Origin: Massalongia carnosa
Lineage: Eukaryota
Assembly (NCBI GenBank): GCA_965645245.1
Contig: OZ287072.1
Coordinates: 620,001-684,000 of the forward strand
Direction of reading: 5' to 3'
Length of the DNA stretch: 64,000 nt
Under the pieces are notes generated by a model. That model saw nothing but the letters and a program-made list of their open reading frames with translations, did not search any database and was not told the origin of the DNA. Made by a program: the position numbers and the translations under genes. Shown here piece after piece: positions 2,679 to 48,900 of this stretch (its first letter is position 1; every line of letters begins with the position of its first letter).

Positions 2679-2775
2679 GAGGTAGAACAGGTGCTGGATA
2701 GTAGAATTCACTATGGAAAACTCCAATATCTAGTGAAATGGATGGGATTTTCTGATACGGATAATCAATGGTTAT
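2679..2775 (+). pseudogene. Chromodomain fragment of a Ty3/gypsy (chromovirus) integrase
   Basis: Translation EVEQVLDSRIHYGKLQYLVKWMGFSDTDNQWL fits the chromodomain pattern (YLVKWxG...W). Confidence 0.75.
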
Positions 2776-2828
2776 CAAAACTGCTTTTTTTATTCTTAAT
2801 ATCACGAGTATACATATCCTTATTATTG

Positions 2829-3368
2829 ATCGGTCCTCCTCCTTCTACACCATCGGTCCTCCTCCTTCTACACCATCGGTCCTCCTCCTTCTACACCATC
2901 GGTCCTCCTCCTTCTACACCATCGGTCCTCCTCCTTCTACACCATCGGTCCTCCTCCTTCTACACCATCGGTCCTCCTCCTTCTACACCATCGGTCCTCC
3001 TCCTTCTACACCATCGGTCCTCCTCCTTCTACACCATCGGTCCTCCTCCTTCTACACCATCGGTCCTCCTCCTTCTACACCATCGGTCCTCCTCCTTCTA
3101 CACCATCGGTCCTCCTCCTTCTACACCATCGGTCCTCCTCCTTCTACACCATCGGTCCTCCTCCTTCTACACCATCGGTCCTCCTCCTTCTACACCATCG
3201 GTCCTCCTCCTTCTACACCATCGGTCCTCCTCCTTCTACACCATCGGTCCTCCTCCTTCTACACCATCGGTCCTCCTCCTTCTACACCATCGGTCCTCCT
3301 CCTTCTACACCATCGGTCCTCCTCCTTCTACACCATCGGTCCTCCTCCTTCTACACCATCGGTCCTCA
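2829..3368. repeat. 23-bp minisatellite (ATCGGTCCTCCTCCTTCTACACC), ~23 near-identical copies
   Basis: Direct reading of the tandem array; it explains the repetitive ORFs 2691-3458 and 2768-3523. Confidence 0.97.
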
Positions 3369-3809
3369 CCACGGAGACGCCAAAGGTCTCATCGTGGGGC
3401 GACCGTCAAACATATAGATTTGCTCCTATCTTTTCGCATCAAAACAATGCTAATTTAACGCGTTCACACGCGTCGCAGACGTACGTACGGAAGAGGATAC
3501 GAAGGCCAACCGCCGGGGGGTAGAATGCGCGCGTCCCTGCACCATGCTTCTAAGGGTTCAAGTCCCTTCATGCAGTCATCAGCTGGAAGAAGATGTGGAC
3601 TAAAGGAGCCGCATCATCCCCCACCCGGGCACAGTCGACACGCGTTCTAGCTCCTGAGAGTTCAAGTCTCCCCATGCAGTCATCAGCTGGGATCAACAGA
3701 ACGCGTAAAGGCACCGGGGCGAATGCTGTCACCTCAAGAAAACTCCATCTCGGAGCAGAATAACAATATCCCCTTTAATAGGTCCAGCCTGTTAAATAAA
3801 ATCGAGGAA

Positions 3810-11451: not shown

Positions 11452-11716
11452 TGATGTGGTGGTGGTTTAGTGATGTGGTGGTGGTTTAGTGATGTGGTGG
11501 TGGTTTAGTGATGTGGTGGTGGTTTAGTGATGTGGTGGTGGTTTAGTGATGTGGTGGTGGTTTAGTGATGTGGTGGTGGTTTAGTGATGTGGTGGTGGTT
11601 TAGTGATGTGGTGGTGGTTTAGTGATGTGGTGGTGGTTTAGTGATGTGGTGGTGGTTTAGTGATGTGGTGGTGGTTTAGTGATGTGGTGGTGGTTTAGTG
11701 ATGTGGTGGTGGTTTA
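11452..11716. repeat. 19-bp minisatellite (GATGTGGTGGTGGTTTAGT), ~14 identical copies
   Basis: Direct reading; it starts exactly where the pogo right inverted repeat stops matching the left one. Confidence 0.97.
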
Positions 11717-12482: not shown

Positions 12483-13983
12483 TCAAAATCCGCAGAATGA
12501 CCCCCCCACACATCTCGACCTGATTGTTTCAGGCTTTGAATCTTCCTGGCCGTCGCTGCCTCCTTTTTCGGTTCCTCCCACAATATCTTTCCACTCCCTT
12601 TCCGGAGCCTTGTCAACCCCACCTCCTACCATGTCTCGATCCCATGCCCATTTCGCTCGGAGTTCCTCGTCAAGTGTGCCGTCGATCATCTTACCTATCA
12701 GCTCCCCCAGGATAGGGAAAAATTTCCATCCGTGGAACGATCCACCGGTGGCAAAATAAAGACCATCACAAGTCGGATGTGATGAAATGACAAAATCTCC
12801 GTCGCAAGCGAAATTGTCCCTAGTGGCCCATTAGATATCACAACGAACCGGTGAGGCTCAAGAACGGTCTGCACTCAATCCAGAAAGAGAGACGGATTTT
12901 ACCAGCATATCCTATAAGAATCAAATTTGAGGTCCTTACTCAATGCACCGAAGATACTATCACAAATGCGACGACACTCGTTCTTCATGGACACGGGCAC
13001 AGCATCTATGTTTGTAGGTACTGATATCATCTGTCCAGATTCTGCATGGAAAATTGAGTTCCTGAAGCTCGTCTCACCAGCAAACTTGAGGTAGCCGTCA
13101 TTCGTGGGAGGTAATACCTCGCCTTGTGTTCACCATAGCATTAGCTTTTAGATTTTTGGCGCCGGAAACAAGACAAGCGCGCTGGAGACAAACCATAAAT
13201 CTCCCCTACATCATGGACAGTGATAGGTAGGTTGGCAAACTTCTTGCGCTGTGTTGGGGATAACTTAACATGGCCAATAACACACCCAGCCGCCATCAGT
13301 CGATTCTCGACGCGAAGGTCTTGGCGGTTCGGAGCGCTGCTCGCGAGAAGCTGAGCGGTATGCGCGCCGGTGGCTAGAATCGTGTGAGTCGCAGTAAATG
13401 TTCTACCATCAGCGGCTCGTACTCCGGTACAGTTTCCAGATTTGTCAAACATTAAACTGGTAACTGTCGCCTGTACCATATCAACTCCGAGATTTGTAGC
13501 AGTCTTCATTACTTCAGCCAATGCAGGAAACGCCTCAACCCAGCCAGACTTGGGGTTGATATAAACTTCTTCGAGGTCCTGGAGGGCCATCCCGTTGAAC
13601 ATGCCAGAATACCGATGCTTCATGCCATTCACGGACACGAAACCTGCCTCGGACTCGATCCCCAGGCGGCGTAACTGTTCCAGTATCCTTCTGGAGCTGT
13701 CAAGCTCGCCTACTGTGAGCTTTTCTGAAGGATGGTAGAACCTGGCCCACAGAGGATCCTCCATCCAGGCCTTTCGCGCTTTGAGTGCAAGGCGGAGGTA
13801 CACCGGATCCTCATATTCGATGCGGATGATTCTATTGATATCTATCGATGCACCTGATTGCTCGGGGAGCGAGTCCGTTTCAACTAAGATGACTCGGCAT
13901 CGTGGCTGGGTTTTAGCCAAGTGATAGGCAGCCGAAACGCCAAAGATACCACTGCCAACGATGAGGAATGTTTTGATTTCCAT
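12483..13983 (-). CDS. FAD-dependent oxidoreductase (sarcosine/pipecolate/fructosyl-amino-acid oxidase family), multi-exon
   Basis: N-terminal LIVGSGIFG (GxGxxG), ASIDINRIIR, and C-terminal DFVISSHP..LYFATGGSFHGWKFFPILG. Introns near 13190-13125 and ~12940-12820 (exact structure uncertain). Confidence 0.88.
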
Positions 13984-14249
13984 TATTACACTGCACGATG
14001 TTAAATGAATCGACAAGTATAATGCTATATTGCCTTGAGTTATCATTTATAGGAAGTTTTGTCCGACTGTAGGACCGCAAGATCGATGATGCTAGAGACG
14101 GCGCTACCGCATGCATTGCATAAGCGTTGTTCGCTCTCTTCTCTTTTCTCTTTTCTCTTCTCTCTTCTCTCTTTTCTCTTCCTTCTTTTCTCTTTCTTCT
14201 TTCCTCTTTCCCTCGTTCCCTCTTTTGCTCTTTCCCTTCTTTGTCCTTC

Positions 14250-14352
14250 GCTCTTCGCTCTTTGCTCTTTGCTCTTTGCTCTTTGCTCTTTGCTCTTTGC
14301 TCTTTGCTCTTTGCTCTTTGCTCTTTGCTCTTTGCTCTTTGCTCTTTGCTCT
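14250..14352. repeat. Heptamer microsatellite (CTCTTTG)n in a pyrimidine-rich tract
   Basis: Direct reading; it explains the (KEQRAKS)n and (FALCSLL)n ORFs. Confidence 0.95.
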
Positions 14353-15249
14353 TTCCTCCTTTCTCGTTGCTTAATAATCATTGTCCATTCCTGTAAATAC
14401 GGATCAGCTGTATTCCGTACCAAATTCGCTTGACTCTTATGCTCTTCGCTCTTTCCGCCTTTTAAGGCGAGTATGGACTGTTGTTCAGGCTCAATTAACC
14501 GTTAGTGCGTAATTCTACAAACATAGGTTTTGCTTAGTCTATACCGCTGGCAAGGTTGACCGTGAGTTTCTCAAATCTCATGTTTGATCGGAGGGGAGAG
14601 ATTTGTGTCGTCTCTTTTTATCGCGAGCAATAATACGGGAGCTAGAGCGAGGCGCTCCACTCGAGGTTATTCATTATTCATCACGCATTCAGCCTCGAGC
14701 TCCCCGTGGCGACATTATGAGTATACCCTGTGTGTATGAATGACCAGGATATGGCGACAAATCTGAGCTATGCGTCTCAGAAATTCAGTACGCATTCAAA
14801 AGCCTTACCGATTTTCTTTCCTCTTAATCAGCCAAGTTCGCTAGCAGCTGGCTTTTGGGCTCTGGTGGTGTTTTAGACTATCATAGTCATTGGTCAATGC
14901 CTATGGTGGGATAAGCACAACAAAGATCAAGTACGTGAGAGTAAATAGAGGAAATGGCTAGTAGAGATTTTCACTGTTAAATTTGGAGAGGGACTGGAGT
15001 AAAGAGCAAAGATAGAGAAAAAAATGATAGCAGCCTCATTTCCCAGCCATAACCTCCCAGCCATAGCCCGAGAGTGATGAGAGCAAAAAGCCAGGGTCGA
15101 GGAGCAAAGAGAGAAAAGAGACAGAAATTTCAGCATGAATATAAAATCAGTCTCTTTCGCCTTTAGCATTATCTTTCAGAGCACAAATCAACAGCACAAT
15201 AACCCTAGAAAAACAATTATCCACGCTGCCTCCCAGCTTGTTTCTCAAT

Positions 15250-15973: not shown

Positions 15974-16953
15974 TTACCTAAGTTGTAGAGTTTTGTTGTG
16001 ATGAACAGTTTCCATATGCCTGTCGAGATTGCCTTGCCGAGTAAAGCCCTTGGTATTTCGACATCCATCAACAAGGCACTTCAAAGGCCGTTCATGTTTA
16101 TATAAATGTGCCCTATGAATTTAAGTGGGCTGTTCCAAGAGTAAAAATGTAACTAGAAGAAATGAAAGGGCAAATTGACTGACCTAAAGGTTGAATTCAT
16201 TTCAATCACGACTAGATTTCCATCCTCGTTGACCCCACCCTTGTCACACGCCAGTCCAAAAGGACAAGTGTGCTGTCCCTTCCCTCGAGCCCCTCGTAGT
16301 TGATCTAAGAGAGGAGTAATGTCGATGTCATGATCCTCTTCATCGTCATTATGGTCGTTCTCGACATCCTCCTCTCCGACCACATCTTCTTCTCTAGAAG
16401 AGGAGACTGTACGTGGCTGGAGAGGTGGCGGCATGGACATGTGAAACGGTCGTGGGATTACAGCTACGGATGCTGGGAACGTAGCCATGGCGCTGGATTC
16501 AACAGTCGAAGAGCCGGCAGGCTTTCGAAACTTGTTCCCATCCCAAGCTTGTTGGCAATCTCGCACTCCTGCAGCTACCACAGTAGCCATATGTCTGTTC
16601 AACGGTCAAAAAAGAGATTCCTATAGGAGTAGCGGGCCCCGGGCGGCCTACTTCAAAGCAGCGTGTTTGTCATTCAAGGAATCGATGAGTTCAAGTTCGC
16701 TCATCTCATCCATTGCCATTAGATGATCGATCTGCTCCTGGGCATAATCAGGAATTGCATCCCCAGATGCGATTGTATCTAATAGACGCGCCAAGAGTTT
16801 CAGCCAGTATGCACACAGATCAATCAGCTCGCCCACGAAGCATGGCTGCTGCCATGGAGGAGGATCTATGGAGGCGACGATGATTGGCATAAGCTGACGG
16901 ATCAGCCGCTGAGCTCTGTTATCCCGATCCAGAGCAGGAATAGCGGTGTCCAT
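15974..16953 (-). CDS. Zinc-finger protein with two C-terminal C2H2-type fingers, 3 exons
   Basis: GT-AG introns (~16651-16596, ~16184-16113) join ORFs 16648-16953 and 16153-16602 to a last exon. Fingers are CPFGLAC..FRAHLYKH and CLVDGC..GFTRQGNLDRHMETVH. Confidence 0.8.
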
Positions 16954-17324
16954 GATAGGTATGACTTAGAGTATTTCAAGCCGAGGAAGAAAGGTCCCTA
17001 GCTTTTGTAGAGACAATGAGTAAAGTACGCCTTACCTTTCTGATCATCCAGTTTTTTTAGATCATCGTTAGGCTGCTTGTGGCTGCATGATCATACGATG
17101 TCAATCACGGGATTCGGGTACAGCCTACTGGGAGCTATCGATATGTTGCATCCCAAAACTCTGGAGCAATAGATAAGAGCCTCGATCATGCTTCTGTTAC
17201 TTGACTACAGAATGATACTCAAGCTTGACCCGGCGAGAGACAACTTTGAAGTTCCTGCTCTGCATGAGCGCCCGAACGTCTTTCATCTGTCGAAATCCAT
17301 GAGGAGCAGCCTCTCCTTTCGAGT

Positions 17325-19602
17325 ATGGACTACTCCTCCGACTGGACTGCGGGAATGATGAACCTGGAACCACAGCGCCTTACCGATCATGACGAAGATG
17401 AAGATGATGAGGGCATTCCTTTAGATCAAATTCGTGGCAGTGACTGCGGATGGAGTAGCTCTGACTGGCTTGGCTTCGACATGCACGATATTGACTTCTC
17501 CCATACTCCGAGGTCTATACTTGCAAAACGAGCGTATGATGGCGCCACATTTTCGGATAGCAAAAGACATCAAACACTCCGTATGTTCCAGGCACTCCCT
17601 TCAACTGGCTACACTGCTTACAAATTGCCATCGTAGGCGTCGTCAACGATACCATTGAAGCGTTTGCCAGAGACCGTTATCCAGAGATGCTGCCTTCAGT
17701 GCCAGATATTGCGGATCGAACACTTGAGCGTCAAATTACCAATCCTTACCTCATTGATGGCATCACTCATCATCCGAAGCATGAGCATTGGAAGAAAACT
17801 GCCATTGGTATCAACGTGAAGGAAGTGAATGGTCTTCTCAAATTTGTTCGAAAGGTCACCGATAAGGCAGCACAAGCCCCAGCATATGGTGGAAATTTCC
17901 ACCCAAGTGTTTTCTGTGCACCGACACCGCGCCGCCCTACCTCCTCTGGACCAGTGTCCGAGATCCTTCGTCATTTGCCCTGGCTTCCTCCTGACTTCGG
18001 GCGAGGGTTCAAAATGAGCCCTCAGGATGAATCTCTATTGAGATTTTGTAAGTTTTGATGACACTTGATTGCGGGTAGCATCTTGACGTGTTTTCCGGTA
18101 GATGTCACTGCTTGGTGCAAAGGCCGCACGATACTTCACGACTCAAACAGCTTTCTAAAAGATGTGACTGCTATGTGTTCTGAGAGCGCCTCTGTCCGAC
18201 ACGCTATTTTCGCGCTTGCAGCGACATATGTCCTTGATTACGAGCCTGGGGAGAACCTAGAAAAACTTGCCGATATGCATCATCAAAAAGCTGTTATGCT
18301 ACTTGGCGAGCAGCTACGAAGCCCAGAAAGCTACGCCCCAGGGAAAGAGAATGCTGTACTAGCAACGATCTTCCTACTCAATCATGATGATGTAAAATTC
18401 TAGTTTCCCCCTCGGCACTAAAACTTCTAGCGATGCGCTGACGAATAAACAGTTCGTCAACTGGGAATTTCGGGACAAGGTTGCCACCCCGAAATGGGCG
18501 CTGGGTTTGCGGACTGCAAAAATGGTTCTTGAGAAGTCGGATCCGGGATACCGTTACAACTATCCTCACAATGTGCAATGTTCCAGCGCAAGGCGCCACA
18601 TTGGTGGCTGGATCGCACAATCGGCCATATTCTCCGCGGTGACGGAAAGATTAGACACTACTCAATCTAATTGCGGCTTCAAATGGCTTCTGGAGGGCGG
18701 TGAAAAGGAAGGCAGACGTATTGGACCTCATATGGGAATGGCCTCTAAACTTCTATATCTACTTGCGCAGGTTACGTATATATCTGCGCGATTCGCAGAG
18801 GTCTGCCTTAAAACGAGGTGCCCCATGTTGCACCACTGGGCTGACTCTCTACAACATAGGATCCTACCTCCAAGCTCTATCCTTTAGTTGCTAGCGCACT
18901 TGTCAAGCATTTGAAGAATTATTATCAATGGTCTGAGTTGGGTAACGGATATTCAACTACCCAAGAACTATTCAACTCTTGCGACGTAAACAGCGATGGC
19001 AAAGTTGATCATGCCGGGAAGGCTACCTTATTAGGCGCCGAGGCTCACGCCGCGTCAATCCGAATCTATCTACAATGTCGATTTTTCCGGTAGGATCATT
19101 CACGGTAGGCCCTCCAAGTAGAGAACCGGGCTAATACTATATTACAAGCAAACCCCGACATCACCCTGATGTGGAAGCAGAGCTGAAAACCCTGCTTCGT
19201 TGCATCAGCATGTTGCCTAGCAGTGGCCACCTTTTCACCGCTCAAGCCCCATTCTTTGGGGTGTGCATGGCGGGTTTCGTGGCCTACCGACCAGAGGACC
19301 GAGAGATCGTTCGTCAGTGGTTTTTGGTGGTAGTTGGAGGATCACGGGGGGTTAGTCCCACCAAGCTGTGACGTCCTCGTTTGTTTGAAATCTGATACGC
19401 GATTGGAAACCCAGTCTAATTGTGCCTTTTGCAGAATGTTCCGCCTGCCTGGTCTGCCGTACAGAGCCTTTGGAAGTGGCATGACTCCATGCCTGCAACT
19501 CAATATGCAGGCGACGATTCCCCCCCAGGGTTAAGGAAGGCATGGTGGGAGGACATGGTTGAAGCGTTCATACGGTATGAGGGTGTGCTTACCTACACGT
19601 GA
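17325..19602 (+). CDS. Fungal-specific transcription factor domain protein (Fungal_trans_2/DUF3468-like), multi-exon, no Zn2Cys6 cluster seen
   Basis: Colinear exons joined by GT-AG introns (first at 17581-17636). Segments VRHAIFALAATY, HHQKAVMLL, IYLQCRFFR, LFTAQAPFF and NVPPAW resemble this family. Confidence 0.72.
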
Positions 19603-20021: not shown

Positions 20022-22884
20022 CTACATCTCACAGGTCGGCTCCTTTACCGCGCATCCAAACGCCAACCTGAAATCGCGGGAGTTGGCTGCGGCACCCTTA
20101 AGCGGAAGGGTTAGCAGAATCTTCAGGCGTAGCGATCGCGAATTCGGTATCTTACGAGGATTCGCGCAAAATGTGGTGCATGGTTATTACTGCGGATATA
20201 CTTGCGTATGGTCTCCGCCTTCGTTTTGCTGCACCACCACGCTCCGTATGAAACGAAGAAGAGTTGTTCCTTAGAGAAGCGCTCCAAGCCCACGGGGATT
20301 TGGTCAGGGTATACTCTATCTTGCTCCTGCCATGCCCCGAAGGCAGCTCGCAAGCCACTAGCATCTGCGAGGTTTTCTTCCAGCGTGAGAGCCCCATCAA
20401 CATGCAATACGCTCCCATTGGGCCCGGATGCACTGAACTTGTTGTATTGGTCCACGAAGCATTGCGACCTCTGCGCGAATTGTCGTATTGTGTACTCGTC
20501 CCACCAGTCTGTCAAGTTGCCATTGGGGCCAAAATATCTGCCCATCAAATCGAAAGCTATGCTTGTCAGACCAAATCGCACCGGCAAGAGTGCAGGCCTT
20601 GATTACCGTGAGATATTTCGTGGCCCATTACCGCGCCAAAAGCACCATAGGTAAGACACTGCGGTAGTCTAGGACCGTAATAAACGGGTGGTTGCATGAT
20701 CCCCCCAGGTACAATAATCTGGTTTCCGGCAGGACTATAGAATGCCTAAAATCAACTTCAGCCATCAGATCCAAGGGGAAGGTTGGACTAAGAGCTCTCG
20801 CCTGCTTACGTTGACTGTCTCTACTGTTCTGTCCCACTCTCGTACGTCAGAGGACTCCGCCAATTTGGCAAATCTCTCATGATTCTTGGACTGCGCGAAA
20901 GAAATCACGTTCTCAAAATAGCCAACATCTGATATTTCAATCGAGCCGTAACGATCTTCGAGATCCACGGCGCTACTCAGGTTGGGATACTTGGAGGGAA
21001 ACGCGATCTCTGCTGTCATCTGATGCACTTTGTAGTCCTATCCGTCAAACACGCCTTACACTGGAGAGTGAGCAAGGTAAAGGTAGGAACTTACGTTTCT
21101 CCACTCCGCGCTCCTTAGCAGCTTGACTCATCCATTGTGCGAATTTCATTTGTTGGACATATGCTGCTGTTATAGCCGAAACAACAGCGCTTCCAAAGGA
21201 CTTAGCGTCTTTGGGCAAATGCCATTTTACCCACAAGTTACCCAGGATCCAACCTTTAGAGTCCAGTCAATCAAGTATTCGAAGAATTGCGGTTCTTTGC
21301 TTACCGAGACCTCCATTGACATGGCGTACGCAGACTTTCCATCGCTCTTCACTTGAAATCCGGGCCTTTCCCTGCAGATAATTTTCAAATTCAAACAGTG
21401 GCTGAACAGCTTCATGCCTGATGTTCATGGCGTGAGTTCGAACAGCGCTCCACACAAAATAGGCTTGAACGGTTCTTTCGTCTGTGCCTCGAAGGACTTT
21501 GGAAAGAATATCAAGATATGACGGTGCTGTAAGTATCACCTTCTGCGGGAGGAACCCTGACGTCTGATTGATGATAAGCTCCTTCAGCGAGATGTACGGC
21601 ATTCTTAATTCTGCTGCCTCTAGAGAGAACATATTGTAGTACTTTTCCACATCGAACCATTCTCGTACAGGCGGAATGGCTTCAGCAAGCTTTGTTTCGA
21701 AGTCGACAAGAGATTCGATCAGCTCGTTGGGTACCAGGAGATCACTATTCTGAGACCTCCAATTCAGAAAAATTGGGCCTTGGTGGCCAGCTGTTTCCAA
21801 TAATCGAGTAAGAACATCATGTATCACTATCTTATATTTGTCAACCAGCTCGGTATTCTTGTAAGATTCCTTTGTTGGCAAGCCGCTTCTATACACAGGA
21901 CGAATTAGCAACGAGTTTGTATCTGGTTCTTTATCGTCAATCTGTATAATTTCAGTATCGAAATACAAATGGGTGCAGAGTAGCGAGTAGTACTTTTGTA
22001 CGAAAGGAGATCAGCGCCTCTACTCCACGGTTCATCAAGTATACTACAGGCTCGGTAAGTTCATTCTCATCTTTACCAAGTTCTCCTCGCCTGCGTGACC
22101 GTGATCTGGAGTTCAAGGCACTATCCTCTAATATGGGTTTGGTTGCGAACGCGTCTTGAATTCCGAACATGATCCCAACCATTGGCGCCAGTCCTCTTCG
22201 CGTGATTTGGCTTTCATCCATACAGCATTCATATGCTTTCTGAACTTTGAGAAAATTGCGCTGCGCTGCGTTAGACGCGTCGTCGTTGTCAAAGCTTGAG
22301 GACAGCTGCGGGCCGTCCGACTCTAAGATACGGCGAAGCAGGTTCTGAGTTGCATCGGCCAGAATGGAACGTCGAGACAAGTCAGCCTGGTCTTCACGTA
22401 GCTCATGCCTGGAGTCCCATCCCCCACAGACGAAGTCTCGGAAATTCGTGCATGGGTCTATGTTTCTCGACAGCGGGGAAATGGTCTCTAATATATTTGC
22501 CGCAGCCAGAACGCATGCGGAAGATTTACATATTGGCGGATGTGGAGGTGATGTAAGTCGGTGAAATAGGTCTTGGATTCTCAGATTCAAGAAATCAAAT
22601 ACTTAAATAGTTTATTACTTACTTAACAGCAAAATAGATACTAAAGCAGTAGCAAGAACAAGGGTCAGAGTCTGCAAACCACACCATTTTAGCAATTTGT
22701 GATTTATTGCTGCCCTCCGGTCAGACCAAGAGTGGCCCAGATCATCCGACACCTCAGCATCTTCGTTCGTATCGTCATTTGAATTGTTGACGTGAGTCCG
22801 CCCCACATCACTTAACAAAATGTCATCTTCATCACTTCTCGTGGCCACAGGCGTATAACGACGACCGACAAGATATTTGTACAT
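20022..22884 (-). CDS. Peptidase family M13 (neprilysin/ECE-like) zinc metallopeptidase, type II membrane protein, multi-exon
   Basis: N-terminal TM helix, C..AC...DPCTNFRDFVCGGW, VNAFY, AVMGHEISH(A)FD zinc motif, EENLADASG, HAPHFARI and terminal C..KEPTCEM*. Confidence 0.92.
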
Positions 22885-23565
22885 ATTTCCAGAAACCGTG
22901 CACAGTTTGGGAGAACACCTGCAACCCGTCTTTGGAAGATCGAGATATCAACGGCGTCGTCTAGATTAGTATATCGTTCTTTTGTGGGCAAAGATTGAAG
23001 AATCTAATCAAAAGACGATAGTAGTACGAGGTTTCGATTAAAAGTAAAGTCAGGGTCTCGACACGAGGATAAGGATCCTCGCTCAAGTAGGAACAGACAT
23101 GACTAGATTTCTGACAACGCGTCATCGAGAATTGTTCGGAAAGAACTTTTCTTTAACATAAAACGTCGAATATCTCGTTTAATCCGTTATTACCTTTAGC
23201 AGAAATTCTCAAGGCGTCGAATTAAGCATCAACTATATATATATATATATTACGGAAGCATTTAAACCAACTCACAAAGTAAAGAGGAGACTGTTGCCTG
23301 CCTAAAGTTATTGTCTATCACCAAGGCACATAGGATTCTCTTTGAAGTTGCATATCGGTCACGTCCCAGGAGCAAAATTCCGTGAGGTTACTATTCTCGG
23401 TCTTGAGGAACGACAATGATCATTGAACCTTGGAGTTATTTCCCTCATTTTTGATACGTCATCATTCACGACATGATCCCATAGCGAAGACCATTGAAAC
23501 CCAAAAACCGAATATAGCGTCGCAAGCCTTGAGCTCCCGCTCCAATATCACTCTCCACATCGTCC

Positions 23566-23803
23566 TCAGCCATCTACCAGCAGATACGCTTCGTCTGCAT
23601 CACCAAACGCCTCTCCACGCTTCTTAGTTGCTATAATGTCCCCAAAAGTCTCTAGATCACGGCGGCCTATTTCAGCAGCTGGGAAGTTTTTAGTCGATCT
23701 TCTCTCGCTGTTGAAGAATGCACGTACTTCTCCCTGGGGTCGGCATGCTGAAAACCGCTAAGGCTAGACTGGCCACTGCGATGACGAACCAAATTCGGGA
23801 CAT
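23566..23803 (-). CDS. Putative secreted Kex2-processed RiPP (dikaritin) precursor peptide, 62 aa, 2 exons (23803-23728, 23678-23566)
   Basis: Hand-spliced: ATG after a CAA-rich leader, hydrophobic signal peptide, 49-nt GTACGT..GACTAA..CCCAG intron. Protein MSRIWFVIAVASLALAVFSMPTPGRTAEIGRRDLETFGDIIATKKRGEAFGDADEAYLLVDG*. Adjacent to a DUF3328 gene. Confidence 0.75.
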
Positions 23804-24656
23804 TCTGTGTGTTGTTGTTAAACTTGTCAGGCTTTCGTTGGATAAATAGTGAGAATGAGAAAGCTCTTGGAACTGGGAGTGTTGGTCGACGAGCGTCCGT
23901 AGTTGGGGGTTGCCTACGTCCGGCGATCTCTAGCCTTTTGTTACTTCGATTCTAAACTAAGAGGAGAATGTTGGAGCGATGGGTTTTCATGTGAAAAGCT
24001 GAAAGGGACCGCCCAAAGTTTCTCCCCGACACCAAGAGGCTCCGGGGCAGTTGCGATATACATACGCTGACATCAGATAACGTTATAGACTACAGGGTTT
24101 GGGTGAGGAGATAAGCTGTGGAGCGTATACTCGACCGAATTCGTATTCATGCAGCGATTCAATGCAGGATTCACTGCAATAGCAATGCTTGGTGTGACTC
24201 CTGCTGTTGAAGATCGACCGATGGCTACGCTCTGGCAGATAACTAGAGGACCTCGTATTGGCCGAGCATGGCCCATCATCAAACAGGAGCGGAAAGGCAA
24301 GCAGAATAAGCATATCGGGGATTTCAAAATTGAAGAGCCTGGAGAGGCAGTAGCGAATCGTCGACTGCCACGAAAATCCGTCGCCGACACGTGCCGCGTT
24401 AAAGTTGGGGGCAGCTGATCACAAAATTTAGCAATCGGGGACACCTGAAGTCCTCAAGGCTTAGCGAGCCACCGACACGCATGGGCGAGCCTTTACGTCT
24501 ATGGCACCTGAACCGGTGCGCGTACTGGCCTTGCACGTCGATGTCTTTTAGTAGCATGGATAGCGATGGCTACGCTACTTCATCTCGGCTGGCGTCAAAA
24601 ACTTGACATAGGTCCTAGATTTTTTCAATCATCGGTTCTCAGTGTTGTTGCTAACT

Positions 24657-25758
24657 ATGCCACAACATTCGATATCATATCAACCTCTGGCTCCTGAATC
24701 GCTCGACGAAGAGGATGATGTCCAAGCCAGCGTCTACGAGCTCGAGAAGTCAGCATTGAATGATTGGAAGACACAACTCCAGCCCTGGAAGTTGAGTCGA
24801 CCATTTGTGTTCCATGGATGTGTCCTCCTATTTTATACTTTAATCTTTATGGTAATGACGTTACGGCGTCGCGAGCTTTCTCCAAATGCCCCCGCGATCA
24901 TCTTTTGTTAATCATCCTTCCAAGCGGTCATCAGACCATACTGATCAAATGTAGCACCTGCACGCGAAGCCCTGCGCTACGAGCCGCGCATCTTTCAGAT
25001 AAAGAGGAACAAAGACCATATGGGGCCCTATTTCGGAGAGCCAAACGAAACCCTTGATCTAGCTTGGCATAAGCTACTACAAAGTTTGCAATGTCGCCAG
25101 ATGCTATGAAACAGTGGCTGACTTGTGCCTAAGATCAGAACATTCATGTTTCTCTCGCCGAACTTCAGCATTTCGAGGGGCGAGAAGAAGAGGCTGTGGC
25201 TTATCCCGATGGTTCCGGCTTCATGGCACAGCTACAGGTGTATCATGACCTTCACTGTCTTGTAAACTCCCAATGAACCAATGTTCACGAGAAGTACACT
25301 GACGTATAGATGGGAAGAAACGCATTCACCATACCATGTGGTTAGATTACTATTACCCAAATTTGACCGACACCGAGCGCGACGAGCTCAAGTTCCACAA
25401 CGGTGTGCGCTCCTTCATCGGCCATTCTGCTGTGCGCTGCGTGACGATCTCAACTGGCGAATTCTACGTAAAAGCTAACGAAGGGATTCGTCCAGATCAT
25501 TGCCTCGACACTCTCCGCGAGAGCATTATGTGCCATGCCGATATCTCCCTGCTCACAATGCGCTGGGGAAAGACCCAGCCCATCCCGCTTGCGAATTTCT
25601 CGGCTCCACACGAATGTATCAACTGGCAAAGCCTGGATGAATGGTCCCAGGGGCGGTCGGTAGATGTGATGAGGCCTGGATTCTTAGCTCATCCGACTCT
25701 AGGCCCTTCTTTTCCGAATGGACGGGGAGTGAGGACTGGGGTGGGCCATGATTCTTGA
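24657..25758 (+). CDS. UstYa-like / DUF3328 oxidase, multi-exon
   Basis: N-terminal TM helix, YFGEP..LDLAW, QLQVYHDLHCL (HxxHC #1), spliced FHN-DHCLDTLRESIMCHAD (HxxHC #2) and HECINW. Confidence 0.93.
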
Positions 25759-26821
25759 ATGGCCGCAGCTGTGGAGTTTTTCGTAAAAAATAACCTTGCA
25801 TTAAACAGTAAATATAAATTTTGGAGTCTCGACAGTTTTGGATCTAAGCTTCAGAGGCTGTAATGCTTTTTATGCACATGCGAGGACACAAGAACACGTT
25901 TGGCTGAGCGTGAAGTACCAGGACAAAGTCAATGAACGGTCTGACACACTGTGCTATGGCTTGTTTATTGCTGCTTGTTACCACGCTTTTCAGTCATTAC
26001 TGTGGTTTATCAGAGTTCAACTTTTTTCAATGAAAATCATCCAAATCGATTAGCTTTTTATATAGGACCATCACAAAATAAAACAGTCGATACGTAGGCT
26101 ACATTTCTGGATTTTTGTCTCTCGTAAAGCCTCCCTCACATGTTGCCAACCCTAACAAATCCTTGGGTTTGTGACCAGGCCCCTTGCGGCCGCAGAAGCC
26201 TCGAATGCCGTGACTATTGCTCTCTATGCTGTCATTGGGGGTTGACCGAAGAACCCCAGCCCAGCACTAGGGGCTATATAGGATCTTAGAAGAGCATCAA
26301 CATCAGCAGCTAACGCTCCTATCTAACGTCAAACTGGGCGGAACTAAGGTTCGAGCTAATAAAGAAGATGCATCGCTACCCAGGTGAATCTATGATGAAA
26401 GCGATTCACTCTCGCGTGGAAGCTGTATTGCGATGGATGAGGAGCATGCCAAGGATTTACCTCTAGAGCCAGAGGCCTCGAAGCAGATGGCGGATGTTTA
26501 TTCGGAAGGGACTCCAGATGGAGCTGTGAAGAGCTCTTTGTGATACTTGGTTGTTAGTTTGTAGATTTTGGAGCCACGATGGAAGATCTTCTACCAGACT
26601 ACAGAGTGTACTCTCATAGCCCTTCGCGATCTCGCTTTGACGCTGGAAACAGTCACACGAATGGAATTTGAGAGATGGAATGATAGGAGAAGAAAGGAGC
26701 TAATCGGATGGATGGTTGACACCGAGTACTTCCACCAGTCGTAGCAAAGCGAGATACTTAGGGACAGTCCCCCCCCTCCCCCCCTGTGTAAATCTTTGCT
26801 CGTAAACAGCCATTTCACTGC

Positions 26822-27271
26822 TCATCCAGGGTGCGTACAAGCTAGTAAGCGCCCATATGTCGCAAAAGCTCCGACGATGAATAGCCCGCCCAGGCCAATG
26901 TAGAAGGTTGTGAGATCGAAACCGAACAGTAACTCCGCCCCACCGTCCGATTTGGTTGCCAAGTCAAGAATCTTTCCTATTGAGAAAGGAATCGAAATTG
27001 AGATCACCGATGATACCATCAAAAAGCCGAAAGCAAGCGCAAGAATTTTAGTTTCCCCTTTGGCGATACTCAGCAACCTCCATACTTCTCGAAAACCGCT
27101 CCATTTGCCTGTGGTTTTTCCTGCCGTCAGACGTGCGCTAAGATTAAGCTGCGCAACTTTCTCCGCCTTCTCGGGCGGTCTGAATGCTTTCTCTGCTTCT
27201 CTGTGTTCTTGTTCAATGTCCTTCACCTCAGCCTGGAGCCTTGATTGTGGTGTACACCAAACGTTGTTCAC
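26822..27271 (-). pseudogene. Isolated N-terminal TM fragment of an MDL1/MDL2-like ABC transporter
   Basis: GFREVWRLLSIAKGE..LAFGFLMVSSVISISIPFSIGKILD..GAFATYGR; no further TM helices or ATPase domain downstream. Confidence 0.7.
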
Positions 27272-45360: not shown

Positions 45361-45966
45361 TCACAGTACAAATGGTATTAACTCCTCAATCGTAGGAAGC
45401 ACCTCGGGTAACTCAGGAATAATAATATTCCAATTATTGTTTATGCTGGTGGCATACACAGGGACGCAACGCTCCCCAATGTTCTGTTCGACGCTTTCGC
45501 AGCAAAAGAAGTACTGCTCCAAATCGCACCATCCGGCAATATCATCGTGGTAATAAACACAAAAGTTGAAATCCTTTTCATAGCAGCATGAAAGCTTGTG
45601 CGGCCCACAATCGGGAAGGTCCGGATCTGTCCAATCTGCACCCCCGCCGCCGCCATTGTTGTTGTTATTTCCAGGGTTTTCTTTAAACGCTAGAGTTATC
45701 GGTTCTTTCATCACCTGTACGCCACCATCGCCGAAGCTAGGATTGCGAATTCTGTGAGATGCTCCTGAACGATTGGTGTCAACAAAGATGAGATTTGCAG
45801 CAGGTAGGTCTTGTGATATACCTATGCCCGAGAGACCACTGTTTATATTGGCAATTGCTTCTGGATCGCTCGCCTCAACATGCCCTTTACTCAGAGAACT
45901 ATCTCCCAGTGGTTGGGAAGAGTAGACGACAACAATGAAATACAGCAAAAGACTGAGAGAGCGCAT
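45361..45966 (-). CDS. Small secreted cysteine-rich protein, 201 aa (effector-like)
   Basis: Signal peptide MRSLSLLLYFIVVVYS, N/G-rich linker, and a C-terminal domain with 8 Cys (C-CC-C-C-CC-C). Confidence 0.7.
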   Translation of the reverse strand: MRSLSLLLYFIVVVYSSQPLGDSSLSKGHVEASDPEAIANINSGLSGIGISQDLPAANLIFVDTNRSGASHRIRNPSFGDGGVQVMKEPITLAFKENPGNNNNNGGGGGADWTDPDLPDCGPHKLSCCYEKDFNFCVYYHDDIAGWCDLEQYFFCCESVEQNIGERCVPVYATSINNNWNIIIPELPEVLPTIEELIPFVL

Positions 45967-48900
45967 TAGGAAAACATAGGATAGGTCGATAAACATATCT
46001 TCGACTGAAAGGAGAGAAATCAACTCGTCCTTGGACCAGAACAAGACCGTATGTTTTCTTTATGTGCTTTAACGGTTCCTAAGCCGTGTAGGAGTGCATC
46101 TCAATGCCGATGGAATTCATAAGAAATTGATGTTTCGGAACGTGCAGATTTCAGGTGCATCTGCTACCACAAATGTCCGAACGAGGCCCATTGTATCCGA
46201 AATCCTCTGCGCTGCCAGGAAGCGGCATCTGCGTCACCGGTGAGTGGGTCGTCGAGGGTGCAGGGTGTGGTCGTTCAAAAAAGAAACATGCGTTGATCAG
46301 TTTTATTGGTATTTTCTTCTTCGGACTCCAATCTAGATGGCGAAGTTTGGCAGCGTCAACTATTTAGATAGCGCTAATCCCCGGGTTTTAGACTTTGTGT
46401 GTGAGAGGCAACTTGTCATCCGGTATGGCCATCCCACCAATCACTAATGATTTTGTGAAATACCAATGCCGAACCACGCAGCCAGTGTGCACTTTTCCTA
46501 AATAGCCGCTAGCAAGGAGCCGGATACCCCTCGAACTTTCGAGCGGCCCCATCCGCTATCTGGTCCAGGTATATTTTTCTCGGTTTTTCATAGACTGTCG
46601 TGGTTATTTTATGTATTCATTTTTAAAATCAGCTCACCATAACTAGACACCCCCTTTGGCAGCAGAGTTAAACGCGGCCGCTAAATTAGCTTCACATCAC
46701 GAAATCAAAAATCAGCTGCGACAATGATTATGATAACGGGGAAAACTTCTTATTTTCAAGAAAATACGTAGTTAAGTTTATAAATATATTAATTGATGAC
46801 ACTGAAACTTTGATACGATTGTGCAAATATTTACATTACAATTTTCGCTAATCTTTTATGCTGGTGCAAAGGGGGTGGTGATTGGTGCGAATAGCGCTCA
46901 AGAAAAACCCCTTTCAGAGAGACGCTGAAACATTGGTAAAACACTGTCAGCGGTTTCGAAATCATGGTTAAATGCAACGTCGCTGGTATGAGATCTCTTT
47001 GCGCGGAAGGCCTCACGGAACGGCCCATGGGTATTCGTGTAAAATGTTACCATGAGAAAGTGAGGGCGAGTACTTCACATTTCACATCTACCTACATTCA
47101 GGTGTTTCCAATACACATCACAGATTTAATATTGGACAAGTGCGGTTTATCGGTCTTGGATTATCTCCTTTAAACGGTTGCTACTTGGTTATATACGCTT
47201 CGTACGTTTCTCCAAGAAACCAATCAGTCAGCCAGGTCCATAAACTGTCATAATCTCGAGAAGAGTCGACCCGTTGGCTTTACGTATGTGCTTGCAGTCA
47301 CGGTATTTTGAAAGTCCAACTCTCAAAGAAAGGACTTGGAGTTTCAGTGAGACAGGCCTTGAGCATCCGACGTGATGCATGCATCATAGTATTCATGAGT
47401 CTGCAGAAAGAAATCAGCTAATGTTTAATGACAAGGTTAGCAGAACGGGATCAAACGCACGGCGATATCGCAAACATTCATGCAAGACTGTGGATGTCGT
47501 TTTAGCAATGGCGCTGGTATGAAGAATGCATATCAAGTGACCTACAGATTTGGGGCACGAGGCATCACAAGGTGGAAACTCGTGGCCTATCGTTGGGTGG
47601 ATCGAGTATTCCGTAGAACGCACATCCTGCAGACTAAAGCAATCAGACATCTTGATTTCCCCGAGCCGGGTATTGAGTCATTACTGGCTTAACGTTGCTC
47701 TTATTAAGGCCCGTGTAGCACCAAATTAACTATATGAGGAAGCGTTAGTTTGCTCACAAGGTTCGACAGTATTTAGCATAATCGCGTACTCCGTCAGCGG
47801 GGACTTCCTCCTATAGACCTGAAGAAAAAGAATCAGATCGAAGGCAAGTTTACGAATGGCTTCGAACACTCAAACCCAGTTGGAAAGGGGTCAGGTAGGC
47901 AAAATCTATAATCATCTCGTGTTTTATCGACAGCAGAAATTTAGATCGAGATTATAATATCCCGAGAAAGGACTCCAGCTGGTATAGCTGTGGCGAGGTT
48001 GACGACGGCAGCTGCAACTGGTAAGTACGAAGCTTTCATCTTGCTGGGTTTGAGCTGGATAATCTTATTTGAGATGGCTAGATGTGAAAGATCTTGAAGT
48101 TGATGGCTGTAAGGATTATTGGGGATTCAGCCGCCTTTTATGCTTCTTGCAGATCACCTATCTAAACCGCCCTACATAACTAATATGTAGTTGATCGAGT
48201 ATGCCGGGAACGATCGCGAATGGTACTCGATGATAGTTAGTATGCCGGGGTTACCAATGGCAGCTACGATGCACGATGGACGGATGCTTAGGCCAAACTG
48301 AGCACACTCCATGAGGTTAAAAGGCATCTACTGATCGCCGATTCCACCCGAGTTACTCTATAGAGCGCTCAAAGCCAGGCTTAAAGTCGATGATGAGTGT
48401 ATCAGTGGCCGAGACATAGCAAGCATGACCTTTTTCCGTAGATGTCATAATTGCCTTATCTCAGCTCGTTCTTCTGAAGTCTGGCATTTTGTGGCTCCTC
48501 CAAGGGTAGGGTATTGGTGGATTCAATACAGAATATAGCAATACCGCATGAGGCGGTACAACAATATAGCTTAGAATCAATGCTTCATGCTCGGGGATCT
48601 AATTATAGTTATGTATGGTAAGCGAGCTGCAGAGTTTGATGGAGGAAGATCGTAGCGTTATTTACGAAGTACTTTGGATGTTAGCCAAGCCGCTACCGCA
48701 GTGAATCAGGTTCAAGGGTACAGAATACAAAATACAGTTACAGGAGTTTTGGGTTGATCGGATATCTGAGCAAAACTACATATAACCAAGGAAGGAGAAA
48801 CTTGTTGGCACACCCATGGTTGTGAAAGATTCGCATCAAGATGCGATGCACTTAAATCCACTGCTCGAGATCTTCCTAAACGCGTTATGGGGGTTTGGTT

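Follow-up and report, generated by a model that had tools for sequence, protein, structure and literature searches.

Which substrate does a lone UstYa/DUF3328 gene of Massalongia carnosa serve, and could it be a peptide of only 62 aa encoded head-to-head with it? The two genes lie in a 64,000-nt stretch of genomic DNA (C6:620001-684000, hereafter the window) that holds one UstYa gene; together with the gene for an M13 peptidase, they form part of a gene island with transposon blocks on either side. Judging from the sequence, we consider it somewhat better than even (a probability of roughly 55%) that the short gene encodes a reduced dikaritin-type (ust-RiPS) precursor that is cyclized by the neighboring UstYa protein. 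The features discussed below are collected in Table 1.

Table 1. Features at the precursor locus, by window position, and UstYa-linked precursor genes elsewhere in the genome, by contig and position.
Feature	Location	Strand	Description
Precursor exon 1	23728..23803	-	76 nt; encodes a signal-like N-terminus that is probably cleaved between V-F-S (residue 19) and M-P
Precursor intron	23679..23727	-	49 nt, GT-AG, phase 1; donor GTACGT, branch-like CTAAA, acceptor CAG (GTACGT...CCCAG)
Precursor exon 2	23566..23678	-	113 nt including stop
First dibasic Kex2-type site, RR	23659..23664	-	residues 31-32; from sequence
Second dibasic site, KKR	23617..23625	-	residues 44-46; from sequence
Unit 1	23626..23658	-	11 aa, contains ETFGD, no Tyr
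Unit 2	23569..23616	-	16 aa, contains EAFGD, acidic stretch and sole Tyr (residue 57, 23586-23584)
Out-of-frame acidic run across the stop	23547..23570	-	5 acidic residues in 7 codons; possible relic of an acidic tail
Shared upstream region	23804..24656	.	853 bp separating the divergently oriented precursor and UstYa genes; may act as a two-way promoter
UstYa/DUF3328 gene	24657..25758	+	4 introns (24907-24954, 25084-25133, 25262-25317, 25403-25495), 284 aa, no internal stop; Pfam PF11807, E 1e-19
Neprilysin-type M13 zinc endopeptidase gene	20022..22884	-	7 introns, 822-aa open model; Pfam PF05649 and PF01431
ABC-transporter gene fragment	26850..27239	-	matches the 5' part of a longer C1 ABC gene at 92% identity
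Intron-split precursor	C6:1020807		about 7 units
Intron-split precursor	C1:446169	+	409 aa, many Tyr-bearing units joined by E-R, no dibasic joints; intron at nt 76
Intron-split precursor	C3:1505659		3 units
Intron-split precursor	C15:819524	+	two copies of a Cys-Cys/Phe-Tyr unit before K-R, in-frame stop between them
Intron-split short candidate	C19:1262361	-	about 42-50 aa, ends Cys-Tyr, lacks repeats and dibasic sites; phase-1 donor at nt 79
Intronless repeat precursors	C16:1079857, C2:2285080, C6:2309026		UstYa-linked

The precursor gene runs on the minus strand from an ATG at 23803 to a TGA at 23568-23566. The sequence-only reading had proposed a two-exon gene, next to DUF3328, for a secreted peptide with Kex2 sites, and in this respect it describes a real-looking gene: the coordinates, the 49-nt GT-AG intron (23727-23679) and the translation are all confirmed at the level of sequence, with splicing predicted, and the unspliced frame does stop after 37 codons. 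The intron opens with a canonical donor (GTACGT), and the ATG stands in an A/C-rich context that has A at -3. A hydrophobic stretch spans residues 4-18 (mean hydropathy 2.69 by a crude hydropathy measure), resembling the N-termini of the genome's repeat precursors; cleavage of the signal peptide, placed by the -3/-1 rule, presumably follows residue 19. The branch site reads CTAAA and not CTRAY, while YTRAY is present in 14 of 16 reference introns, which are homology-based predictions with one uncertain acceptor. Two extra in-frame acceptors, at 23667 (61-nt intron) and 23652 (76-nt intron), would yield products of 58 and 53 aa with the last segment unchanged. The gene is single-copy in the genome (52 Mb, 25 contigs), whose introns and homologs are those of an ascomycete. 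A check of the reads for indels near the stop had been proposed; contigs from three DNA runs cross the gene with no variant letter and no gap, and because they agree we take the stop not to be an assembly slip, bearing in mind that these runs may be the assembly's own source. A fourth DNA run, labeled as a different organism, gave thin coverage of the gene with no difference listed and was left out of use.

Two dibasic sites, both predicted Kex2 sites, delimit two units, of which the Tyr-bearing unit 2 is likely the core-bearing segment. The E-x-F-G-D motif noticed earlier in both segments is present at a spacing of 13 residues and exceeds chance modestly (p 0.007-0.009 over 20,000 shuffles, for a match chosen post hoc); overall, the units are alike at only about 4/9 residues. 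The precursor had also been called single-core: this holds for its single Tyr, on which the label is based, but two degenerate units exist. According to Umemura 2020, a KEP contains at least three tandem repeats of at least 8 aa between Kex2 sites. The 62-aa peptide has the dibasic sites but falls short in repeats, and the rule would exclude it from repeat-based KEP mining, as had been anticipated. Among dikaritin hallmarks, it has a Tyr in the core-bearing unit and a nearby UstYa/DUF3328 protein with two HxxHC motifs, and lacks a multi-repeat KEP architecture.

The UstYa protein has a hydrophobic N-terminal anchor and a double HxxHC motif (HDLHC at 164, HNDHC at 196). DUF3328 proteins, AprY included, are described as membrane-anchored, lumen-facing, dimeric copper enzymes that need oxygen and carry this double motif (PMC12435403), and precursors linked to them are enriched in Tyr, the residue at which dikaritin cores are cyclized (PMC7329392). 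The four-intron model is identical at 208 of 285 positions to an intronless relative (P0001) encoded on a 1,120-nt contig, which is probably a transcript; this match supports the model and indicates that a second organism has kept the enzyme. Other relatives occur in Acephala, Phialocephala, Xylariaceae and a Xanthomendoza MAG, with none in prokaryote or viral contigs, and no solved structure is related in sequence. Accessions of such relatives are KAF8865831.1, CZR59238.1, KAI3324407.1 and, for the MAG, KAL8798779.1. If accession numbers are assumed to follow gene order, the 18 KEPs given for the Phialocephala subalpina strain in Table S2 of PMC7329392 all lie more than 15 accession numbers from its UstYa relative CZR59238.1 (the nearest is 89 away), in keeping with a UstYa branch that lacks classical repeat precursors.

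Comparison with the other UstYa genes of the genome proved most informative. The 34 UstYa matches were grouped by us into 18 regions, three of them apparently copies of one segment, and 20 kb was read around each. A precursor-like neighbor was found in at least nine of the 18, giving at least nine candidate dikaritin loci by sequence; eight of these nine neighbors are head-to-head with the UstYa gene and six are intron-split, and among the matches listed the other nine regions have no candidate. All six intron-split precursors place a phase-1 donor just behind the predicted signal peptide (nt 76, 76, 73, 64, 79 and 76), and in two multi-repeat precursors (C6:1020807 and C1:446169, with 47- and 48-nt introns) the intron sits at nt 76, exactly as in the 62-aa peptide gene. 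Of all the evidence that the predicted gene descends from a precursor, this common intron position is the strongest. The available literature, PMC9233826 and PMC7099791 included and with small coverage of subscription journals, contained nothing on a conserved precursor intron.

The units of these precursors vary widely, with C6:1020807, C3:1505659, C16:1079857, C2:2285080 and C6:2309026 each carrying a different Tyr-bearing unit. Because the units at C1:446169 are joined by E-R, Kex2-site filters would miss that precursor. The Cys-rich core at C15:819524 is unusual for the dikaritin-type class. The short candidate at C19:1262361 stands head-to-head with a UstYa gene and has an FAD monooxygenase-like frame nearby. 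Near-identical UstYa-bearing segments at C7:36029, C7:2713177 and C1:3536981, two of them near contig ends, yielded no precursor.

Three scans set the UstYa regions (360 kb) against a control of 40 stretches of 10 kb (400 kb) chosen regardless of content. Scan A returned six start sites in the control, one of them below 250 aa, versus seven in the UstYa regions (five precursor-like, two retrotransposon). Scan B, which demanded a small-residue cleavage motif, returned none versus three and missed the 62-aa peptide gene, and scan C returned one versus eight, five of the latter being divergent neighbors, and missed the C19 candidate. As the scans were designed after the gene had been seen, they show the rarity of the architecture and are not a blind prediction; from the control rate of scan C, we estimate about 0.003 chance hits per 2-kb divergent stretch.

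Searches for relatives of the 62-aa peptide were negative: a word search in 5.8 billion proteins found no homolog, no Pfam family matched, and no homolog turned up elsewhere in its own genome, other UstYa regions included. Two phmmer matches among 1.84 billion representatives (P0002 and P0003) were rejected as long repeat proteins with summed weak hits, two loci from a metagenome contig scan as a phage tail gene, and Atlas matches of 0.89-0.90 to small bacterial hypothetical proteins as chance level. By eye, the peptide and the C3 precursor share F-E-T, G-D-E-A and the Tyr, with no tblastn hit at E 1e-3. We give the missing homologs little weight because small spliced genes are poorly represented in the searched sets and 2560 of 7878 KEPs are likewise without a homolog (PMC7329392).

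Elsewhere in the window are an FAD-dependent oxidoreductase gene (12483-14046), a zinc-finger-like gene (about 16000-16600), a gene with a fungal transcription-factor domain (about 17300-19000) and, on the minus strand at 45364-46059, a 232-aa frame with a signal-like stretch, a Cys-rich C-terminus and no Pfam match, possibly a small secreted protein. Tandem simple-sequence arrays, noted by eye, flank transposons at 2700-3520 (about 69-nt units), 11480-11710 (21-nt units) and 14130-14370 (7-nt units). The ABC-transporter fragment was rejected as a cluster transporter, being a truncated duplicate; positions 25952-27239 form a partial duplicate of an ABC-transporter region on C1 in pieces 80% and 92% identical, with a 100-nt high-copy repeat (26748-26848) replacing the missing part. 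No NRPS or PKS was found in the window, whose nine frames of at least 300 aa are transposon, oxidoreductase or ArsA-type, or by eye in its flanks (20 kb and 10 kb).

Taken together, the dikaritin-type reading draws on the intact UstYa gene head-to-head at 853 bp, the counts of precursor-like neighbors (at least 9/18), head-to-head pairs (8/9) and phase-1 introns at nt 64-79 (6/9), the scan C contrast, the lack of an NRPS/PKS-like frame nearby, DUF3328 chemistry (PMC12435403), Tyr enrichment (PMC7329392), and the lack of a listed KEP near CZR59238.1. Counted against it are the missing peptide homolog, the branch site, the post hoc design of the scans and the miss by scan B, the nine regions without a candidate, the multi-repeat nature of all characterized dikaritin precursors, and an M13 protein without its final Trp.

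Some of these points would also suit a decaying gene, a reading we hold to be rather unlikely: a once longer precursor, with more units or an acidic tail, would have been shortened by a frameshift and repeat erosion and would now give little or no product. The acidic run that the sequence-only reading placed across the stop in another frame is indeed there (23570-23547) and is mildly non-random, with five acidic residues in seven codons equalled in 23 of 3000 dinucleotide shuffles; a longer former precursor with a frameshift is plausible from the sequence. Acidic tails close three further precursor sequences in this genome (C6:1020807, C16:1079857 and, at C15, the second copy). A run of this kind across the stop is absent in all eight other precursor genes. 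Decay would also accommodate the non-consensus branch site, the low likeness of the two units, the truncated ABC gene and many transposons in the neighborhood, and the in-frame stop between the two copies at C15:819524. However, such a run occurs in about one control window in 80 (97 of 7920 windows of 100 nt), no third unit follows the stop at the DNA level (the best ungapped match, 19/42, is background), and the RIP signature is absent at the locus. Nor is there damage to the signal-like N-terminus, the donor, either dibasic site or the Tyr, and the UstYa and M13 frames are open, all of which speaks against decay.

Alternatively, the gene may release unmodified linear Kex2 fragments, as a signal or effector, with UstYa acting on another substrate; we regard this as improbable. 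Unit 1 lacks Tyr, 78% of KEPs have no DUF3328 neighbor, and linear KEP products are known (PMC7329392), yet the 853-bp head-to-head pairing is that of the genome's multi-repeat precursor/UstYa pairs. Moreover, the units open with D-L and G-E and show no X-A or X-P dipeptides directly behind the dibasic sites, unlike an alpha-type pheromone precursor, and only 3 of 443 pheromone precursors have a DUF3328 neighbor (PMC7329392). Least probable is a chance frame, in which a signal-like stretch, splice sites and dibasic sites merely coincide between the two enzyme genes while UstYa, like CctR, modifies a metabolite of non-ribosomal origin: the missing homolog, the one short control hit of scan A and the role of DUF3328 proteins in non-RiPP pathways (PMC12435403) would suit it, but the intron position and phase common to bona fide repeat precursors, the 0.003 expected hits and the lack of a nearby NRPS or PKS all speak against it.

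Which known dikaritin system, then, does the locus resemble? A specific echo of the ustiloxin motif ED-YAIG had been proposed, and this part of the earlier reading fails. Acidic residues presumably precede YAIG in UstA, and the 62-aa peptide shares with UstA and PhomA a signal-like N-terminus, Kex2 sites, an acidic flank and a Tyr followed by hydrophobic residues. However, its core reads Y-L-L-V, the acidic residues and Tyr have an Ala between them, none of the genome's 12 tyrosinase matches lies on its contig (C6), and there is a single UstYa gene, whereas ustiloxin and phomopsin combine a Y-x-I-x core (PMC7329392) with a tyrosinase and two to five DUF3328 genes. The accessible text of PMC4740483, which reports UstA to have 16 repeats and to be processed by kexin, does not mention acidic residues before YAIG.

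From this comparison, the 62-aa precursor would work most like the single-UstYa clusters for asperipin-2a (AprA/AprY) and epichloecyclin (GigA/GigB/KexB), which likewise combine one DUF3328 protein with a secreted, Kex2-site, Tyr-bearing precursor and no tyrosinase (PMC10540207, PMC12048977). The gig cluster also includes a dedicated protease gene, although that protease is a kexin and the one here is of the neprilysin-type M13 family. By description, the asperipin-2a and epichloecyclin precursors carry several near-identical repeats, in contrast to the two degenerate units and one Tyr here. Reduced precursors have precedents, since DUF3328 clusters with single-repeat gigA-like genes are reported in Aciculosporium take (PMC10540207); there, the one-unit core is GigA-like and GigB is C-terminally truncated, whereas here UstYa is complete and no relative of the peptide is known. 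Lichen RiPP clans R1 and R2, set beside the present locus by description, are UstY clusters with candidate precursors that have a signal peptide and Kex2 sites without repeats; as far as the accessible text of PMC12048977 goes, none of the candidates was established as the precursor, an acetyltransferase belongs to Clan R2, and a single-core precursor was raised only as a possibility. Acalitide is a single-core fungal RiPP made without DUF3328 (PMC10840396), and all five characterized dikaritin precursors are multi-repeat, with yield climbing steeply with repeat number (PMC10512285). Single-repeat precursors have thus been reported before, and the predicted 62-aa peptide is neither a KEP by the published rule nor of the ustiloxin type.

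The remaining member of the gene island is the M13 peptidase gene, which begins 682 bp downstream of the precursor stop on the same strand. Its product has an acidic N-tail, one transmembrane stretch (a type II anchor), the motifs NAFY, HEISH and EENLAD, and intact zinc motifs; with membrane anchor, HExxH plus ExxxD and an open frame, it conforms to its family as a putative peptidase. It lacks the terminal Trp present in its paralog, the genome's only other M13 gene (on C2), which has no precursor-like or UstYa neighbor within 30 kb. The N-tail elements Y-x-x-V and D-D-I-L-L resemble secretory-pathway sorting signals. Neprilysin-type peptidases cut before hydrophobic residues. The adjacency of the two genes is the evidence that points to trimming as the most likely role. 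No literature linking UstYa/DUF3328 with neprilysin or M13 was found in sources with small coverage of subscription journals; the sole match for such a pairing (bioRxiv 10.1101/2022.09.08.507134) was rejected because, as far as its accessible text shows, it concerns an ant gene.

In the dikaritin-type reading, the precursor and UstYa genes would be co-transcribed from the 853-bp region between them. After removal of the intron, the 62-aa prepropeptide would enter the ER and lose its signal peptide, and Golgi kexin (the genome has one kexin-type P-domain gene) would cut at RR and KKR to release the 11-aa Tyr-less unit and the 16-aa Tyr-bearing unit. UstYa, as a copper/oxygen oxidase, would most likely link the phenol of the unit 2 Tyr to the β-carbon of another residue, for which the Phe of the FGD motif or a Leu behind Tyr is a guess; as in single-UstYa clusters, no tyrosinase would be needed. 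The M13 peptidase would then most likely trim the acidic flank, and each precursor would give a single small cyclic peptide, secreted in low amounts.

Surveys list many DUF3328 genes without a recognizable precursor, and the present locus offers a concrete small case, in which three genes occupy 5.7 kb and the putative substrate has 62 aa. If the gene is instead a remnant, the locus would be an ordinary decayed dikaritin cluster. We tentatively suggest that many orphan DUF3328 genes may be served by short precursors of one or two units, encoded head-to-head with a phase-1 intron behind the signal, the present locus being a possible working example that uses M13 as a dedicated trimmer; their phase-1 intron and few units would cause such split precursors to be overlooked by gene callers and repeat filters. 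A corresponding search rule, under which the DNA head-to-head of a DUF3328 gene is examined for a signal exon followed directly by a phase-1 intron, brought up several more of the genome's precursor genes. Should M13 indeed trim the core, a peptidase family would be added to dikaritin maturation.
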